Shown here: positions 33,503 through 42,309 of the stretch, piece after piece
Position numbering within the stretch: the first letter of the stretch is position 1
How the letters are laid out: each line of letters starts with the position of its first letter
Source of the DNA: Parasphingopyxis sp.
GTDB lineage: Bacteria > Pseudomonadota > Alphaproteobacteria > Sphingomonadales > Sphingomonadaceae
Direction: 5' to 3'
Length of the DNA stretch: 64,000 nt
NCBI GenBank assembly: GCA_965212265.1
Contig: CBDBUZ010000007.1
Coordinates: forward strand, 22,349-86,348
Translations under genes and position numbers: made by a program
Notes under the pieces: generated by a model
Databases searched by the model: none
What the model saw: only the letters and a program-made list of their open reading frames with translations
Told to the model about the DNA's origin: nothing

Positions 33503-35863
33503 TCAATCTTCCAGTGATGGGCAATCTCCGATCCGTTCAAGCATCGGCACCATTCGATAGCGGGCGCTTGTCATGGGCAACTCATCGCGATCTTCGAAGT
33601 CGCGCATGACCTGGAGCGAAAACCGCATCAGCTTACACGCTTCCTCGCGGTCACCGATCTGCCAAAACACGTTAGAGGCTTCCTGCAGTCGGTGCGCATA
33701 ACGCATAGGCGTCGCCAATCCATTGCGGCCAGGCCACTCACTCCTGTTGGCATGGTCGAGGCCGATTTCCAGCATCTGCCGGGCTTCTTGATTGCGGCCA
33801 AGTGAAGCTGCCGTGTCCGCTCGGGTCAGCACTAATATTCCCAACGTCCTTTGAAGGTCATGATCATTCGGATCGGCGTCTCTCGCCGCTGCTGTCGAGG
33901 CGAAGACCGAGCGCAACACGCGATCCGCCAAGGCGGGTTGCTCGAGCATCAGATAGGTCTTTGCTAGATTTATGGAGATGGTCGCTAACTGCCTCTGCGC
34001 TGCAGGCGAGGAGCCGTTACTTGTTATGAAATCTCGTTGTGACTGCAATACCCGTTCAAAGCCGGCAATCGCCCCTTCGATATCGCCATCGACAATACGC
34101 AGTCCGGCAAGCAGGTGTCGCAGATCGATATAGGCATGCCGGATATCAGCAGATCGCTGCATTTCTTCTGGTGCTGCATTCACAATTTCCACCGCTCGTT
34201 CAAAAGCACGGCGGGTCCCCTCGATATCATCATTGCAACACCCCCGCGCATCGCCAAGATAGCGTAATGCTCGGACCTGCATCGCAACACTTTCAATCGT
34301 TGGTGTCTGCACCTCGTCCAGAAGATTGCGAGCTCGTTCAGCGTGACCAAGCGCCCCATGCGTATCGACATAAGTGAGCAGTTTATCGCGCGCTAAGCTT
34401 ATATGGACATTCGCCAATGGCAATCGAATCTCGTCGCCGGGTGCTTCATTATAGAGAGGTTCCAGTATTTCGGCGGCTCGCTCAAACAGCGCCAGACCCT
34501 CTGCAAGCTGGCCAATATTGCCGCTCGCCAGTGAACCCGTCACCGTCGCAAGTCGATAATAACCACGCCCCGCGGCCAAGCGCGTCTCAAGCGAGGCATC
34601 CGGATTGTTGGCCAGCGATTCCAGATATCGTTGTGCTGTCTGCGCAACGGTCAGGCGCGCCTTGGTGGCACCTGGAACTTCGCTCACGCGATCAAAAACA
34701 TCGAACATCATAATGTTGGCGAGGTCGCGCGTTTCAGAGAGCCGCTGTTCTGCCTCGGCGCGCGCGATATCGGTTTCTCTATATGCGGCGGACACCAATA
34801 CTAGCGCCGCAAAAACCGCAACGAAAACCGCCGCCACGGCTCCGGCTAATAGACGCTGACGGCGGACGAGCTTCCAGAAGAAATAGGACGGCCTGCCGTG
34901 GATCGCAGAGACCGGGCGATGATCACGGTGATTGTCGATATCCTCGATCAATGCTGAAACCGACGGATAACGATCATCCGGTTCGATTGAGGCCGCTTTG
35001 TTGGCAATCGCGATCAACTCGGTATCGCTTTTTTCGCCGATCAGTATTTTGAGCAGCATACCAAGTGAATAGGTGTCGGTCAGAGTATTGGCGGGTCCAC
35101 CGGATCGCTGTTCCGGGGCCGCAAACCCCGGTGTGTGGTCGGCTTGGCTGGGCTGCGCTAGATTGTCAGACTCTTCCGGCTTTGCGATACCGAAATCAAT
35201 GAGTTTGACTTGATTCTCGTCAGTTACAAGAATGTTAGGCGGGGTTAGGTCGCGGTGCACGACCAAGTGTTGATGAGCCGCTTCTACGGCACGGCAGATC
35301 TGGCGGAAGACCCAAATCCTGGTTTCAAGGTCACGCTCTGCAGCGTTCAGCCATTTGTCGAGCGATAGGCCGCTGACATATTCCATTACGAGATAAGGCG
35401 ATCCTTGGTCCGTCTCTCCGCCATCGAACAATCGCGCAATATTGGGATGATTGAGGTCGGCGAGTGTCTGCCGCTCACGACGAAATCGCTCGACGATTTC
35501 AGGATTGATCAACTGTTGTTTGACTACCTTGATCGCAACAATGTGATCGAAGTCTTTGGCGGCTCGTTCGGCAAGATAGACATTGCCCATACCACCGCGT
35601 CCAATAAGACGTAATATTCGGTACGCTCCGAGTTCGTCGGGGACATCATCTTCGATATCACTAAGGAAGGGAGCTCCCCCGGTTTGCAATGACTTGCGAG
35701 GTTCATCGCCTCCCTGCAGTAGCTTTAACACACGGCCCTTTGTTGCCTCGTCCAAATCATCGCGGACCAAGACTGATGCTTCACGATCAGCAGGTGGTTG
35801 ATCCAGTGCGCGCTCTAGAGCCTCTAACACCATCCGTTCGTTCGCCGCGTCGGTTCGGCTCAT
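33503..35863 (-). CDS. Membrane Ser/Thr protein kinase with C-terminal TPR-like domain
   Basis: GRGGMGNVY, VAIK, HRDLTPPN, DFG, APEQ; TM helix; helical C-terminal domain. Confidence 0.92.
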   Translation of the reverse strand: MSRTDAANERMVLEALERALDQPPADREASVLVRDDLDEATKGRVLKLLQGGDEPRKSLQTGGAPFLSDIEDDVPDELGAYRILRLIGRGGMGNVYLAERAAKDFDHIVAIKVVKQQLINPEIVERFRRERQTLADLNHPNIARLFDGGETDQGSPYLVMEYVSGLSLDKWLNAAERDLETRIWVFRQICRAVEAAHQHLVVHRDLTPPNILVTDENQVKLIDFGIAKPEESDNLAQPSQADHTPGFAAPEQRSGGPANTLTDTYSLGMLLKILIGEKSDTELIAIANKAASIEPDDRYPSVSALIEDIDNHRDHRPVSAIHGRPSYFFWKLVRRQRLLAGAVAAVFVAVFAALVLVSAAYRETDIARAEAEQRLSETRDLANIMMFDVFDRVSEVPGATKARLTVAQTAQRYLESLANNPDASLETRLAAGRGYYRLATVTGSLASGNIGQLAEGLALFERAAEILEPLYNEAPGDEIRLPLANVHISLARDKLLTYVDTHGALGHAERARNLLDEVQTPTIESVAMQVRALRYLGDARGCCNDDIEGTRRAFERAVEIVNAAPEEMQRSADIRHAYIDLRHLLAGLRIVDGDIEGAIAGFERVLQSQRDFITSNGSSPAAQRQLATISINLAKTYLMLEQPALADRVLRSVFASTAAARDADPNDHDLQRTLGILVLTRADTAASLGRNQEARQMLEIGLDHANRSEWPGRNGLATPMRYAHRLQEASNVFWQIGDREEACKLMRFSLQVMRDFEDRDELPMTSARYRMVPMLERIGDCPSLED

Positions 35864-36402
35864 TGATCTTGGCTCAATCGATCGTGTAACCAGATGCGCG
35901 AGGCTTGCCAGCGCCGTTTGACAGTCCGCACTGAGACATCAAGGACAGTTGCGATATCGCTAAGTGACATACCGCCAAAAAAGCGCATCTCCACAATATC
36001 GGCGCGCTCCGGATCAATTTCTCGCAACTCGAAAAGGTGTAAATCCAACGCTAGCAGTTCTATGGGTGCCTGCCATTCTGCAATGTCCGTCACGAGTGTG
36101 ACTTTAGTGTGATAGCGCTTTTCAGCATTGCGACGACGAGCCTGATCGACAAGTATCTGGCGCATCAGCGTCGTCGAAATGGCGAGAATATGCGCACGGT
36201 CGCTGAATTCCATCTCGGTCATGCGGGACAAACGGATGATTGCCTCGTTGATCAGGTCTCCAGTCGACAATGACGAGTGCAATTCTTGCGAGAGTTTCGC
36301 GGCAGCAATATCCCTGAGCTCATTATGAATCTCGCGCACCAGTGAGTCACCGGCGGTTACATCCCCAACCTGCCACTTGGCCATCAGTTCGCTGTGATTC
36401 AT
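35860..36402 (-). CDS. ECF sigma factor of the kinase-associated type (ECF43/TIGR02999-like)
   Basis: SLSTGDLINEAIIRL, LMRQILVDQARRR, IVEMRFFGGMS, TVKRRW; overlaps kinase start by 4 bp. Confidence 0.9.
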   Translation of the reverse strand: MNHSELMAKWQVGDVTAGDSLVREIHNELRDIAAAKLSQELHSSLSTGDLINEAIIRLSRMTEMEFSDRAHILAISTTLMRQILVDQARRRNAEKRYHTKVTLVTDIAEWQAPIELLALDLHLFELREIDPERADIVEMRFFGGMSLSDIATVLDVSVRTVKRRWQASRIWLHDRLSQDQ

Positions 36403-36495
36403 AGTCCGGCCCCCAGTTTCGGACAGATTCCAAGAATAGCCACAATTCTGTTGCAAATCCAAGATGTTTCAGACGGGGAGGCATAGTCACGCACG

Positions 36496-36699
36496 TCAGA
36501 AACCATAGCGATCCGCCACTGCAAGCAGGTCTTCTACTCGGCTTCCAATCTCAAGGTTCTGGCGCAGCCTGCGTTCGAGCCAGGCGCGCCGGCTCTCGGC
36601 AGGTTCGTTCAGTGCCTCTTCGAGCAAGGCCAAAACCTCTCGTTCCATGTCCATATTGACATCAGCTAGATCGGGCGGATCGGGCCGTGCATCGTCCAT
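36496..36699 (-). CDS. Small protein similar to the N-terminal segment of the neighbouring kinase
   Basis: EREVLALLEEALNEPAESRRA...RVEDLL vs kinase ERMVLEALERALDQPPADREA...RVLKLL; AAGGA RBS. Confidence 0.7.
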   Translation of the reverse strand: MDDARPDPPDLADVNMDMEREVLALLEEALNEPAESRRAWLERRLRQNLEIGSRVEDLLAVADRYGF

Positions 36700-36754
36700 T
36701 ATCTAATCCTTGGCGTCGCTCAAGATTCGTCAGTTGCAAAAATGATATGGATCA

Positions 36755-39700
36755 TCAAAACCGCCATCCAATCGTGGCTGACCCGGCAATGCCCTGCGCG
36801 TCCGAACCCACAAGCCCGCGAACATCGCCACCGATCGACCAGCCGCCGCCCAGTTGATACCGTCCGGCGATACTGAACAGTCCAGCGGAGCCATCAGTGC
36901 GGGGTGAACGAACGGAGAAAGCGCTGGCGGGTGCTCCGGCGATTCTCATTTCAACCTGGGACACACTGCTATGCCCATCGATATATTGGGCGCTCAGATC
37001 GAGACTGCCATTGGCGCCGTGCCAGTTGGCGAAAATACCGCCGCCAATCCGAGTGGCTTCATCGGAAGCTCCTCTGCTCGCGAGGTTGAGGCTGTTTGCT
37101 CCGGTTTCGCCGAAACTCCCGATATCGCCATCGGCAAAGAAAAATGAAGCAACCGGGCCTGCTGCCCAGCCGCCGCTACCCAGAGGCAGTCCGTAGCGAA
37201 GTTCGGCTTCCAGCGAGAGGGTTTCCATATCGACGCTGGCCTGTGTCAAACGCAATACTGTGCCAAAGGCGACCCCGCGCCGAACAGTGTTGTCGAGATT
37301 GCTATAGCTGAACGCCCCGGTCGCAGTGATCCCGCGATTGCCTGTTCCATATCGACCAAAGCCGCCGAGATGCCAGCCGTCGAAATCGGCAGTCGAACGG
37401 CGGGCATCGACATCCAGCTCGCCATCGACATGACCGACAGTAGCGCCGATCGCCCAACTGTTACTCGGTCCGCGATAGTCGATACCGAAATCGAAGCCGT
37501 AGCTATTGCTGTCAGCAACCGCCGCGTTACCGTCGCTATCAATTGAGCCGTCCCGGCCGGTGACTCCGCCCCAGGCACCCCAGCCTTCTCCGCTTGCCTC
37601 GTGGGCGCGCGCAACAAGCCGATCAGTGCGAACCATCGCATCATCCAGACCATTGGCCAGCAGAGAAGCGTATATCTCACCCGATGACGCGCTAAAGGCG
37701 GCCCGTGCCTGCGGCGCGGTCATAAACAGGATCTGCCTATAGACGCTCGCTGCATCGCTGCCCGCCGTCTGATCGAAATCGTCAAGGCCATTTGCCGCTC
37801 CTAGCTCATTATAGGTAACCGCGGCTGTCGGAAATAGCGGTGCGGGAAGCGGTGGAGGTGACGGAAGAGGTGGCATCGAAGGGGCAACGTTGTTGGGCGT
37901 CAACGCGAGCCCCACATCATTACCGTCTCCTGCCGTATAGTCGACCGACGGTGTCAGGAAAGCGAGCTCGTTGGTGATCGTTCCGAACTCGCCCATCACT
38001 GCGTCCATCGCATCATTGTCGATGATGAGGAAATTGAACGGGTTAGCGCCAGCAAAGCCGCCGCCGGCCATATCGAGAATGCGAAGTGTCGCATCGCCCA
38101 AAGTCACCGTGCCGTTGACGATCACGACATCATTGCCGCCCATCTCGTCAACCTCGACCTCGAAAACACTGTTCGCATCAAGCGTCAGATCGCCGGTTGT
38201 CAAGGACCCGATGCTATTGCCGGGCGCGAGGGTGCCGCCTGCCAAGGTCAGCGCGCCGATTGTGCCCGAACCCATGAAAACGGCACCTTCGCTGACAAAA
38301 ACGTCCAGCATCGACAGATCACCATTGGCGACGAATGTTCCGCTGCGCACCTCATATCGAGAGAATATACCGCCATCAGCATTGGCCGTCAGCGTGCCTG
38401 GTCCCTCTTGCGCGAATGTCTCGATCGAGGTGAAGTCGAAATCGTTGAGATCGACCGTCAGATTGTCAACATCGGCCGTTGTGAACAGCGCGGTATCATT
38501 GTTCGCGCCACCATCCGCAGCGACTGTGCTGCTCAGCATATCGAGCAGAAACACATCCTCGCCTTCGCCCAATGAGATCATGCCGGCAATCGCATGGCCA
38601 TTGGCGATAGAGACAGTGTCGTTGCCCGCTCCGCCGAGGAAATCGGCGGTGATAACCGTCCCGGACGCAATCGTGGCGCTATCGTCTCCGTCGCCGAGAT
38701 CGAGCGTGCCGTTGATCATGCCGCCCGTTTCGGTTTCGGCACGATCGGTATCATCGCCGAGCAGCACATCGCCATTGGAGACGCCGGTCGCGCGCAGCAG
38801 AAATATGTCGTCGCCATTGGACAGGTCGATCGCGGTGCCGCCCCCCCCTGTGATCGTTCCGGCCAGATCAACGCTGGTGGTATTGAGCGTCGGGACCACG
38901 GTATCGACGCGCTCACCATCGATAAACTGGATGTTGGTTGCCGTGTCTTGATCGCGAATTGCAATATCGCCCGCCGCAATGACGCTGGTTTCGTCGACGA
39001 TAATCCTGTTGTCCGATGGCTCGTTTATGCCCGTGAACGGGTCAAAATATGCGCGCACAAACACGCCGGTTGTGTCGGCACCGGCAACCATGATGGACCC
39101 GCTATTGATTACGTCGATAGCCAGAATCTGCACCGCCGAATTAACGCCGAAACCGGACCGCCCGTCGACCATTATCTCGCCGCCGTCGACGATCAGCCGT
39201 AGTTCCAGAATTTTGTCTCTGTTGAACCCGAATGGATCTTCGATAAAGATTCCGGCAGATTCTTCGCCACCGTTCGCTATAAGACTGCCCGATATCGTGA
39301 CCGCTGCCGATGCTGACATATCGATGCCACGCGCAGAGCCGCGACCGTCCGGACCGCTTCCGCCGATCGCTTCCACCCTGCCCTGAATGTCTATCCCGGG
39401 CAGAGCAGCGCCGAAACCGAACGGAAACTGGATGCCAAGCGCGGCGCCGCCGAATGCGGTTGTGCTGGGTCCGGTTACGCTGGCTTCTCCGCCAAACGCC
39501 TGCACCAGTCCTTCAACGACAAAGCGCGGGGCAATCGTGGAGCCTTCGCTCGACCGCGGGTTGAAGAAGATACCGAACGCAGCGCCGCCCCTGACAATTA
39601 CCTCCGCATCGTTGTCGGGATTGTTGATCAGTTCGGCATTGCCGGCCGTCGCAACGATATTGCCGACTTGCCGATAGACTGTGTCGTCGGTCGCGGTGAC

Positions 39701-41458
39701 TCCACCGCCGGAAGCACTACCACCAGTCAGCAGGCCAGATATATTCTCGCCAGTGATCTCCAGCCTAGCGTCGCCGCCAAATGTGGTGATCAGGTCTTCG
39801 AAGGAAAATTCGGTAACCGTAGTCGCGGCCGCCTGAGGAAAGCCGAAGTCGAAACTGAAGCCCGATGCACCGCCCCCGACACTGCGCGTCTCATAGTCGC
39901 GGCCATTGGCGATCGCGAGGCTATTGCCACCACGCGCCGTGATCGGTCCGCTAAATGTAAGGTCGAGCGAGAAGGAGCCGCCAGCTTCTCCCGCGCGCGC
40001 CGCGCCGCCCTCTGCTTCGACGGCATAACGCGGCGTTCCTTCGTTAACATCCGAATAGAGCGTGCCCGTCGTTGCCACACCAGTGCCGGTACCGACCGCG
40101 CGTGCATTGCCGCCGGTGACGTCGATAGAACCGTCAAAGGAAAACTCGGCATATTCCGTCGAGAACATGGTGATCGCGCTGGCAGTCTGCCCTCGGCTTC
40201 GCGCAAAGATCAGACCGGCCGTCTCGTCAACACCACCCAGCGAGGCGGTCGCCTCGGCGCTGCTGCTGCCGCCTACCACCACGATATCGCCAGTATAGTC
40301 GAGCCGTGTCAGTCCGTCCTGGTCGTCATTATCCGTGTCAGTCAAGATACCATATGCTGTCGGGTTGAACGCGGTCCCGCCGTCAGCGATCGCCATGCCC
40401 TGTCGCAAATCCGCGCCCGTGCTCGTTGATACTGCATGAATTGTGACATCGGCGCCGATTATGCTGACATCGCCTATCATCGTGAGGTCGACATTCTGAA
40501 ATCCGGGCAGATCCTCCGCATCGGGGTCGAACGAGAAAAAAGACGGCGCGTAGATACCGGTAAGACGAGCGAAAGTGACTTGGGCATCCGCGGTGTTGTC
40601 TACGCTCGAAGCAAAGACATTAGCTGCGCCGCCTGTGATCCTGATGTCGCCGGTCTGCGAGATTGCGAGGTCATCAAAACCCTCTGCAAAGATCCCATGG
40701 TTTTCGGTAACGGCATTGCGGAAACGGATGGTTCTCGCGCCCGCCGATCCGCCATTGGTATTGATCGTCGTAATGTTGCGCGTCCCGCCGTCCACGGCAA
40801 GCAAACCGGTGTTGGTCAGCGCGATATCGCCTGCCAGATTCTCAGCCCGGATCGCACCAAACCGACCTAATGTGATATCCGCTCGAAACGTATTTTCGGC
40901 GCTGAACACTGGCCTGGACACGTCGATATCGCCGATATGCGTGAAATTGATCTCCCCGCCAACGTTAAGCCCGAGGGCACCAAAATTATCAAACTGTCGA
41001 CTGCCGTTTGTTTCTGTGTAATTCGCTTGCGTTTGCCCGAAGATATCGCCGACCAGCTGGCCGCTGACTCCGCCATCGGTAATGATGTGGAAACCGGCTA
41101 TTCTTCTGTCGTCGCGTTCGTTCGGCGGCATCAATGCCATGCGGAAATTGCCCAAATCGGCATCGACAGTGACATCTAAACCTGCATCCTGGCGGAGGAA
41201 GAATCCGCGGCTGCCGATATCAGTCGTCAGATTCTCGAAAATGACGGTGCTGACGGTATTGGAGATCACGGCTCCCCCGCCGGAAACATCCCCATCGCAA
41301 GTCAGCACGCTATCGTTTACGCCGCCCGTTACGCAGCTGGCTTCTGCCGGACTCGGCACCAAGGCCAAGGTCGCGCCCATCGCCGCCAGCGCTACCCCAT
41401 GCTGCAATCCTGCTCTGGTCTCGAATTTCCGCCGGTATGCCATCGTTTTCCTCTCCAA
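36755..41458 (-). CDS. Autotransporter (type Va), Gly/Thr-rich passenger
   Basis: Signal peptide, beta-helix-like passenger, APGNSIG, Pro-rich linker, barrel region WGAWGG...ATIGWRF. Confidence 0.9.
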   Translation of the reverse strand: MERKTMAYRRKFETRAGLQHGVALAAMGATLALVPSPAEASCVTGGVNDSVLTCDGDVSGGGAVISNTVSTVIFENLTTDIGSRGFFLRQDAGLDVTVDADLGNFRMALMPPNERDDRRIAGFHIITDGGVSGQLVGDIFGQTQANYTETNGSRQFDNFGALGLNVGGEINFTHIGDIDVSRPVFSAENTFRADITLGRFGAIRAENLAGDIALTNTGLLAVDGGTRNITTINTNGGSAGARTIRFRNAVTENHGIFAEGFDDLAISQTGDIRITGGAANVFASSVDNTADAQVTFARLTGIYAPSFFSFDPDAEDLPGFQNVDLTMIGDVSIIGADVTIHAVSTSTGADLRQGMAIADGGTAFNPTAYGILTDTDNDDQDGLTRLDYTGDIVVVGGSSSAEATASLGGVDETAGLIFARSRGQTASAITMFSTEYAEFSFDGSIDVTGGNARAVGTGTGVATTGTLYSDVNEGTPRYAVEAEGGAARAGEAGGSFSLDLTFSGPITARGGNSLAIANGRDYETRSVGGGASGFSFDFGFPQAAATTVTEFSFEDLITTFGGDARLEITGENISGLLTGGSASGGGVTATDDTVYRQVGNIVATAGNAELINNPDNDAEVIVRGGAAFGIFFNPRSSEGSTIAPRFVVEGLVQAFGGEASVTGPSTTAFGGAALGIQFPFGFGAALPGIDIQGRVEAIGGSGPDGRGSARGIDMSASAAVTISGSLIANGGEESAGIFIEDPFGFNRDKILELRLIVDGGEIMVDGRSGFGVNSAVQILAIDVINSGSIMVAGADTTGVFVRAYFDPFTGINEPSDNRIIVDETSVIAAGDIAIRDQDTATNIQFIDGERVDTVVPTLNTTSVDLAGTITGGGGTAIDLSNGDDIFLLRATGVSNGDVLLGDDTDRAETETGGMINGTLDLGDGDDSATIASGTVITADFLGGAGNDTVSIANGHAIAGMISLGEGEDVFLLDMLSSTVAADGGANNDTALFTTADVDNLTVDLNDFDFTSIETFAQEGPGTLTANADGGIFSRYEVRSGTFVANGDLSMLDVFVSEGAVFMGSGTIGALTLAGGTLAPGNSIGSLTTGDLTLDANSVFEVEVDEMGGNDVVIVNGTVTLGDATLRILDMAGGGFAGANPFNFLIIDNDAMDAVMGEFGTITNELAFLTPSVDYTAGDGNDVGLALTPNNVAPSMPPLPSPPPLPAPLFPTAAVTYNELGAANGLDDFDQTAGSDAASVYRQILFMTAPQARAAFSASSGEIYASLLANGLDDAMVRTDRLVARAHEASGEGWGAWGGVTGRDGSIDSDGNAAVADSNSYGFDFGIDYRGPSNSWAIGATVGHVDGELDVDARRSTADFDGWHLGGFGRYGTGNRGITATGAFSYSNLDNTVRRGVAFGTVLRLTQASVDMETLSLEAELRYGLPLGSGGWAAGPVASFFFADGDIGSFGETGANSLNLASRGASDEATRIGGGIFANWHGANGSLDLSAQYIDGHSSVSQVEMRIAGAPASAFSVRSPRTDGSAGLFSIAGRYQLGGGWSIGGDVRGLVGSDAQGIAGSATIGWRF

Positions 41459-41630
41459 AATGAGTGCCGGGAAAAATGGTCACTCACCAAAGAAGGCGCA
41501 AAACAGCGGAGAAAGGGGCCAAAATTGTTTCTGGCGCGAAGACCCAAGAAGGTATTGGGGGGCGAGGCCTCACAGGAAATCGAAGCGAGGGATCAACGGT
41601 AACCAGGACAAATAGACCGGCAGATCAAGC

Positions 41631-41654
41631 GTCCGCTTTCGGCCAATTGCAGTC
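41631..41654. repeat. Hairpin repeat copy 2
   Basis: GTCCGCTTTCGGCCAATTGCAGTC; first 17 bp identical to the copy at 50481. Confidence 0.75.
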
Positions 41655-41664
41655 TTAAGGGGTT

Positions 41665-42309
41665 TCACCATCCGACCGTCAGGCGCTGCCTTGGAGCTGG
41701 TTGCAATTCGATTAGGTCAAGCATTGCAACAGCGAAATCTGCGTAGGAAATTTGCGATTGTCCATTGCTTTGCTTGACAAGCGTGTTGCGTCCCAGTGCA
41801 TAGCGGCCCGTTCTATCAGAATTGAGCAACATTGCCGAAGGCCGCAGACATATCCAATCTGCATCTGGAAAGGCGTTCAGCAGAGTGTCCTGCGCCGCAC
41901 AAGCTTCCGCGATCGGCCGGACGGAGCCTGGCAAGAACCCTGGAGCTGTCAGAACAGTGTGATTGGTGCCATCGCCGATCTTCAGCGGCGCCGCCCCACC
42001 CGTGACATAAACCGGCTTGTTCTCAGCTCTCGAAGCCATCAAGACAGCCCGCGTCATACTCACGAGCTTGTCCTCCTGGCCTTCGGGCGGGCGCAGGGCC
42101 GACACGATAGCCGCATTCGCCTGCACCAGGCGCCCCAGCTTCTCACGGTCATTGAAAACATCCAATGTCTCACAGCGAATATTGGGGCTATTGCCCTCTA
42201 GGCGACTTGTATTTCTTGCGCAGGCTGTCACTTGATGGCCGCGCTCGGTTGCCTCTTGGGTGACTGCCCTTCCGACAACGCCAGTAGCGCCAAGAATGAG
42301 AATATTCAT
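41665..42309 (-). CDS. NAD(P)H-binding oxidoreductase (atypical SDR)
   Basis: ILGATGVVG, GGAAPL, WICLRP, ISYADFAVAM. Confidence 0.9.
   Translation of the reverse strand: MNILILGATGVVGRAVTQEATERGHQVTACARNTSRLEGNSPNIRCETLDVFNDREKLGRLVQANAAIVSALRPPEGQEDKLVSMTRAVLMASRAENKPVYVTGGAAPLKIGDGTNHTVLTAPGFLPGSVRPIAEACAAQDTLLNAFPDADWICLRPSAMLLNSDRTGRYALGRNTLVKQSNGQSQISYADFAVAMLDLIELQPAPRQRLTVGW

Follow-up and report, generated by a model that had tools for sequence, protein, structure and literature searches.

The window analysed here, a stretch of 64,000 nucleotides from Parasphingopyxis sp., carries on its reverse strand four genes that encode, in the direction of transcription, an autotransporter, a protein of 67 amino acids (hereafter the small protein), an ECF43-type sigma factor, and a Hanks-type Ser/Thr kinase (Table 1). 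The small gene starts with ATG, and its Shine-Dalgarno-like sequence is located 7 nt 5' of this codon; SD-like purine runs are also found before the start codon in the orthologs. The earlier sequence-only reading had described an open reading frame with a ribosome binding site, located between the autotransporter gene and the sigma gene on the same strand, and both statements were confirmed. In the window, 93 nt separate the small gene from the sigma gene. The conserved core of the small protein comprises residues 19-64 and reads EREVLALLEEAL..P...RRAWL.R.L......G.RVEDLLA.A.

Table 1 Features of the cassette in the window.
Feature	Position	Strand	Basis
Hanks-type Ser/Thr kinase gene, 786 aa	33503..35863	-	PF00069, E 7e-38; weak TPR matches
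Kinase N-terminal helical module, residues 1-55	35699..35863	-	hhalign of alignments A1 and A2; homologous to the small protein
ECF43-type sigma factor gene, 180 aa from MNHSEL	35860..36402 (alternative start 36462)	-	TIGR02999, PF07638
Sigma-70-like promoter motif TTGGAN-N18-TATTCT in the small gene-sigma spacer	36433..36462	-	Motif conservation; putative function
Small gene, 67 aa	36496..36699	-	Profile homology to the N-terminal helical module of the kinase; free-standing protein
Shine-Dalgarno-like AAGGA of the small gene	36707..36711	-	Read from the sequence
Autotransporter gene, longest ORF 1567 aa	36755..41458	-	PF03797, E 1.4e-29
Autotransporter promoter-like motif TTGGCC-N17-GCGCCTTCTT	41490..41522	-	Motif conservation; presumed ECF-dependent

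Neither Pfam nor NCBIfam gave any match to the small protein, and Rfam gave zero matches across positions 35800-41800. With phmmer, no second copy of the small protein was found within the source genome and the kinase was not reached, and single-sequence word-seeded searches with the small protein or with kinase residues 1-75 retrieved nothing but the respective query. In the window, the small gene and the sigma gene are in one frame and are separated solely by three TGA codons (36463-36498, - strand). A programmed read-through from the small gene into the sigma gene was rejected, since only 4 of 11 loci have the two genes in one frame, as would be expected by chance, and the stop codons differ.

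The sigma factor scored 167.3 bits against TIGR02999, of which the cut-off is 126.15, and matched PF07638 with an E-value of 7e-33. It has the sigma-2 plus sigma-4 architecture of ECF sigma factors (Sig-70_X6 / Sigma70_ECF models matched), and its orthologs consist of 178 aa. Region 2.2 reads SSLSTGDLINEA, in which STGD occupies the position of the DAED motif, and this feature is conserved in all orthologs. A Ser/Thr as the phospho-acceptor instead of the acidic DAED motif in region 2.2 is the criterion for ECF43 (PMC8999054), and ECF43 sigma factors are inactive until their own kinase phosphorylates region 2.2, an anti-sigma factor being absent (PMC8999054; PMC13147305). The kinase encoded next to the sigma factor consists of an N-terminal module, a kinase domain (residues 81-276), one transmembrane segment (approximately residues 338-362), and a TPR-like periplasmic C-terminal domain, and its start overlaps the stop codon of the sigma gene. 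No anti-sigma Pfam match was found in the cassette. The TIGR02999 score, the STGD sequence, the adjacent Hanks kinase, and the lack of an anti-sigma gene agree with the ECF43 assignment previously made for the sigma factor. The sigma factor and the kinase of the window are ordinary ECF43 / PknS-like members, and the source genome contains a single sigma-kinase pair of this type, which is that of the cassette.

The C-terminus of the autotransporter has the terminal motif of a beta-barrel (...IGWRF). A C-terminal beta-barrel translocator domain with an aromatic last residue, which characterizes type Va autotransporters, was found, and the ending ...GWRF is shared by all loci. The true start is likely to be the ATG at 41443, which follows GGAGAGG, and the cargo portion appears to evolve fast as judged from the sequences. 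The called genes upstream of the small gene vary from 724 to 2213 aa among the cassettes (L042, 6808-8982; L028, 1304-7945; the window, 36755-41458); the C-terminal barrel and the small gene are conserved despite this range, and the 724 aa in L042 represent a gene call.

The small protein had been aligned in the sequence-only reading with the pre-catalytic N-terminus of the kinase encoded two genes downstream. At the level of single sequences, this similarity was weak: BLASTP did not report it, the sole match being a spurious one of 7 residues, and the Smith-Waterman score between the small protein and the kinase of the window (48) was reached by 12 of 2000 shuffles. At the level of profiles, the similarity was borne out. 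When an alignment of 13 small proteins (A1) was compared by hhalign with an alignment of 14 kinase N-termini from the same and related genera (A2), the probability was 98.4% with an E-value of 5e-15, and the match was collinear over columns 1-55 of both alignments, starting from the initiator Met. Furthermore, a hidden Markov model of the small family gave 22-36 bits for each kinase N-terminus tested, including 23.8 bits for that of the window's own kinase. The pattern common to the small proteins and the kinase N-termini is ER..L..LE.AL..P...R..W(Y/F)L ... R.R(V/A)..LL. A recent duplication of the 5' end of the cognate kinase gene itself was not supported as the origin of the small gene, because the model of the small family scores the kinases of cassettes and those outside cassettes alike.

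The best match of the kinase N-module profile in the PDB was 9eed_A, a construct of PknS residues 1-364, at residues 14-56 in exact register (E 0.01). Residues 1-81 of PknS are invisible in the crystal and are predicted by AlphaFold to form three to four helices, and no function was assigned to them by the depositors (PMC13147305). In all 30 clusters of the small family, the L-x-TGG linker and the kinase domain are absent and the sequences stop just past the last helix, which defines a new small family. Several positions are conserved in this family and variable in the kinases, namely RKL.ER, in which L45 is invariant and R48 nearly so, and the terminal LLA.AER, in which L58 is invariant and A62 nearly so. 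On the basis of these profile comparisons, the small protein is a stand-alone homolog solely of the helical module located at the N-terminus of ECF43-associated Hanks kinases. On the kinase side, the helical module is directly followed by an L-x-T-G-G/A motif in 14 of 14 kinases (A2 columns 59-63), of which the Thr and the first Gly are invariant. This motif corresponds to kinase residues 59-63 in the window (35675-35689, - strand), and the free-standing proteins end before it; its invariant Thr might be a site of autophosphorylation or act as a pseudo-substrate.

When 1.84 billion protein cluster representatives were searched exhaustively with phmmer, 11 further relatives of the small protein were obtained (E <= 1e-3), all of 57-68 aa. 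A profile search of 5.8 billion proteins extended the family to 30 clusters at 90% identity with lengths of 57-90 aa, all with E <= 5e-15 and with nothing weaker. All 30 clusters are unnamed or named 'hypothetical protein'. The named sources of the family are Parasphingopyxis, Pontixanthobacter, Parasphingorhabdus, and 'Sphingomonadaceae', and the remaining sources are marine, coral-reef, and stromatolite metagenomes. Cultured carriers include Pontixanthobacter sp. CEM42, P. aestiaquae, and the strain of CP022548. Carriers accounted for 4 of 18 genomes of the window's genus and for 2 of 401 Sphingomonadales genomes sampled evenly across the order. The small family is thus rare, and it is dispensable for ECF43 signalling in general. 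Weak matches in short frames of G015, G027, and G035 (L012, L019, and L015, respectively) were spurious.

Against its closest ortholog (G008, 68% identity), the small gene had a pN of 0.22 and a pS of 0.74, and the differences at the three codon positions numbered 15, 8, and 28. In more distant pairs, pN was 0.17-0.37 and the synonymous sites were saturated. The small gene is under purifying selection, with dN/dS far below 1, and its length, stop position, start codon, and SD-like site are conserved among the orthologs. It was also conserved in all 17 loci of the context survey described below. Hence, the 67-aa ORF encodes a real, selectively maintained cytoplasmic protein. It had been considered that the ORF might be unconserved or merely the stump of a deleted second kinase gene, and this was ruled out by the conserved length and stop position together with the purifying selection. 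The statement that such a component had not been described has held: none was found in the ECF43 literature searched, every name given in the databases was 'hypothetical protein', and residues 1-81 of PknS are presented without a function in PMC13147305.

The gene context was surveyed in 17 distinct loci on 19 contigs representing at least three named genera. All 17 small genes are immediately preceded by a gene that ends in ...GWRF*, the interval between the two being 18-55 nt. A sigma gene of 178 aa follows after a spacer of 63-93 nt in 14 of the 16 loci in which the downstream side is visible, and the kinase gene comes after the sigma gene wherever the contig reaches far enough. The exceptions to this order are two genomes of the genus, G013 and G008, in both of which the autotransporter-small gene pair is intact. 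The order in G013 is sigma-kinase-autotransporter-small gene; in G008, the sigma and kinase genes are located approximately 29 kb upstream of the autotransporter and small genes, with metabolic genes between them. Thus, the tie of the small gene to the sigma gene that had been read from the window required correction, because the small gene follows the autotransporter gene in all loci, including those of G013 and G008. Each carrier of the small gene with enough contig has an ECF43 sigma-kinase pair on the same contig.

These results show a four-gene cassette of autotransporter, small protein, ECF43 sigma factor, and receptor kinase in a few marine Sphingomonadales. The flanking genes of the cassette differ in every genome (including L037 and L042), so that the cassette can be regarded as an insertable unit composed of two sub-units. 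The four-gene cassette is probably horizontally mobile, and the arrangement in G008 suggests an island-type insertion or a rearrangement. Several further features of the surroundings were observed. At the edge of its contig in G008, the sigma-kinase pair is bordered by a tRNA gene, the 3' end of which it directly adjoins (the last 260 bases of L035, G008:C34:20001-39881), and the approximately 29 kb between the two pairs of this genome contain hydantoinase-like, LuxR/MalT-like, and PutA-like genes. In L039 (13000-18246), the cassette is located approximately 3.5 kb from the conjugative-transfer genes VirB4/TrbE and TrbL.

Two kinds of promoter-like motif were found in the cassette. The motif before the autotransporter gene has the family consensus TTGRSC-N17-[GAT]CGC[CT] and was found in 8 of 9 loci, always with 17 nt between its two halves and 63-81 nt upstream of the start codon, while the sequence around it is otherwise diverged among the loci. 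It has no TAnnnT -10 element, and its extended form occurs once in the 2.86-Mb source genome. From these sequence features, it looks like an ECF-type, non-sigma-70 promoter. In most loci, the sigma gene is preceded by the sigma-70-like TTGGAN-N17/18-TAT(T/C)CT, which is found also before the sigma gene of G008, though no small gene precedes it there. A constitutive promoter of the sigma and kinase genes themselves would fit a sigma factor that is made in an inactive form. No terminator-like hairpin was found between the autotransporter and small genes, nor elsewhere between the cassette genes, and the sequence was found in none of the RNA runs searched. Based on the linkage to the autotransporter gene in 17 of 17 loci and the separate promoter motifs, the sigma factor probably has the small protein among its outputs, and the small gene is probably not part of the sigma-kinase transcript. 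We infer from the arrangement of these sequences that the small gene belongs to the autotransporter operon rather than to the sigma-kinase unit; likewise, co-transcription of the autotransporter and small genes and dependence of the autotransporter promoter on the ECF sigma factor are presumed. A second conserved block, TGAG(N0-3)CCGTTTTT, is present just downstream of the putative autotransporter promoter (41473-41486, - strand) and also in L023, L022, L028, and L029. It resembles the -35 region (TTGAGCCGTTT), had no match in Rfam, and might function within the 5'-UTR or as the binding site of a regulator.

The structure of the small protein was predicted by AF2 with the family alignment, giving a pLDDT of 87.8 and two helices at residues 16-29 and 34-64. 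The model is a helical hairpin, the second helix of which is long and partly unpaired; a hairpin of this shape usually needs a partner. Foldseek with this model against the PDB gave nothing below an E-value of 2.9, and a PDB sequence search with the small protein gave chance matches only, such as influenza B NS1 (E 0.05). An artificial chain of small protein, linker, and sigma factor, in which the three in-frame TGA codons were read as Trp, was also modelled by AF2 using 3 paired and 30 unpaired rows. The pTM was 0.42 and the mean pLDDT was 69, and the docking, obtained with a monomer model from a shallow alignment and without PAE, is not confident.

Taken together, the small protein is most likely, as judged from its homology and genomic context, an undescribed third player that tunes the sigma-kinase signalling pair. 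A more definite form of this explanation, to which we give about an even chance, is that the small protein is encoded within the regulon, mimics the kinase N-module, and exerts feedback on the phosphorylation of the sigma factor, probably by restraining it. The cassette would then consist of two transcription units. The sigma factor and the kinase would be expressed from their own housekeeping-type promoter, and the autotransporter and small genes would form an operon behind the non-sigma-70 promoter as a target of the phospho-activated sigma factor. Being encoded in such a target operon, the small protein would be produced solely upon activation of the pathway. As a copy of the kinase N-module, it would most likely occupy the binding site of that module, which would be located on the sigma factor or on the N-module of the kinase itself, and this occupancy would modulate further phosphorylation of the sigma factor. 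A dominant-negative brake, namely negative feedback, would be the most likely sign, since these systems do without an anti-sigma factor and a phosphatase gene is absent from the cassette. It is possible, and proposed here tentatively, that the kinase N-module is a sigma-docking and specificity domain and that its free copy, encoded within the regulon, inhibits this docking by competition. The sequence-only reading had likewise suggested a possible sigma-docking module, with the free copy as a decoy or adaptor.

The opposite sign should also be considered. The small protein might be a positive adaptor or scaffold that binds the sigma factor or the phosphorylated sigma factor, or heterodimerizes with the kinase N-module, and thereby promotes phosphorylation or protects the active sigma factor, resulting in positive feedback once the autotransporter operon is on. 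The evidence from homology and operon structure applies to such an adaptor equally as to a brake, and the RKL.ER and LLA.AER positions conserved only in the small family could provide the second interface that an adaptor would be expected to have. The small protein-sigma chain, with a pTM of 0.42 from a shallow alignment, gave it no structural support, however, and a protein that mimics a single interaction domain is usually a competitor. We consider the adaptor unlikely.

The strict linkage to the autotransporter gene fits equally well a function directed at the autotransporter. The small protein might serve as a cytoplasmic factor in the synthesis or export of the autotransporter rather than in the signalling pair, its likeness to the kinase reflecting a shared ancestral helical fold. 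Indeed, the small gene directly follows the autotransporter gene in every locus and stays with it when the sigma and kinase genes are elsewhere, as in G008 and G013. However, the copied module occurs also on kinases unlinked to autotransporters, such as PknS with a type VI secretion system, and all carriers with enough contig have an ECF43 sigma-kinase pair on the same contig. Moreover, we know of no cytoplasmic autotransporter factor that resembles the small protein. A role solely in the service of the autotransporter thus seems rather improbable.

A conventional anti-sigma factor of a known class (a NepR-like hairpin or ASD / zf-HC2) that sequesters the ECF sigma factor would resemble the small protein in being small, helical, and encoded beside an ECF sigma gene, and the AF2 model is a two-helix hairpin. 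However, no anti-sigma model of Pfam or NCBIfam matched the small protein at E <= 0.1, the NepR model PF18557 matched only a different locus on contig C1 of the genome, and hhalign against the NepR proteins of the genus gave a probability of 0.7%; a NepR-type identity was rejected on these grounds. ECF43 sigma factors are, in addition, intrinsically inactive and do not need to be sequestered (PMC8999054), and this identity is very improbable. That the small ORF is non-functional, being either what a deletion left of the 5' end of a second kinase gene or an ORF that arose by chance, would accord with the weak pairwise similarity to the kinase but has a negligible probability, because the ORF keeps a stable length and its stop position across 17 loci of at least three named genera, recurs in 30 clusters, has starts and SD-like sites, is under purifying selection with dN/dS far below 1, and is followed by a spacer with a conserved promoter motif and not kinase debris.

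The reading of the small protein as a feedback mimic of the kinase N-module can be compared with known systems. EcfK-PknS of Xanthomonas citri and EcfP-PknT of Vibrio parahaemolyticus have the same TIGR02999/PF07638 type of sigma factor with Ser/Thr in place of DAED, the same translational coupling of kinase and sigma factor, a transmembrane receptor kinase with a TPR-like periplasmic domain, and no anti-sigma factor. PknS has also the same N-terminal helical module as the kinase of the window, its residues 14-56 matching the profile. These pairs and the cassette both appear to be dedicated to a surface or secretion target, which is the autotransporter in the cassette, whereas it is a type VI secretion system or polymyxin-resistance genes in the known pairs. 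Furthermore, the known pairs have been described as two-component, whereas the cassette adds a separately encoded copy of the N-module in the presumed target operon. What is new would be a three-part version of the two-part ECF43 pathway.

The PhyR-NepR-EcfG system of Alphaproteobacteria follows the same principle, in that a mimic of the interaction surface of a core component competes for a partner and controls an ECF sigma factor. The mimic in that system copies the sigma factor and titrates the anti-sigma factor, whereas the mimic in the cassette copies part of the kinase, and there is no sequence relationship between them. The source genome itself encodes a canonical NepR anti-sigma factor (G000 contig C1:64262-64354, - strand), which belongs to the module of the general stress response and is unrelated to the cassette. 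Eukaryotic microProteins, such as Id proteins, LITTLE ZIPPER, and MIF1, are likewise very small single-domain homologs of the interaction domain of a larger regulator, and the small protein has this size and composition, consisting of only one module of a larger regulator. MicroProteins are dominant-negative feedback inhibitors, and their induction often depends on the pathway of the regulator itself. However, they are eukaryotic and target transcription factors, and their likeness to the small protein would be functional only, with no homology. Sda of Bacillus subtilis is a 46-aa helical-hairpin inhibitor of the histidine kinase KinA and binds a helical domain. Similar to the small protein, it is a tiny helical hairpin, and it controls phosphotransfer from a kinase to a transcription factor; its targets are histidine kinases, to which it is not paralogous, and Sda and the small protein are not homologous.

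Phospho-activated ECF43 sigma factors are a recently recognised type of signalling with more than 1,000 members. A type VI secretion system and antibiotic resistance are under their control, as are, probably, many surface structures. The small protein is of interest because it makes the role of the conserved and very widespread kinase module of 60-80 residues, which is not resolved in the sole crystal structure, directly testable. A natural protein consisting only of the N-module and encoded in a presumed target operon would be a ready-made separation-of-function tool for the binding partner of the module. If the N-module is indeed a docking domain and the free copy its competitor, the small protein would be the first anti-sigma-like brake described for phosphorylation-activated sigma factors and would close a negative loop in a pathway thought to be two-component. 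The small protein could also reveal whether a built-in feedback regulator takes the place of the missing anti-sigma factor.
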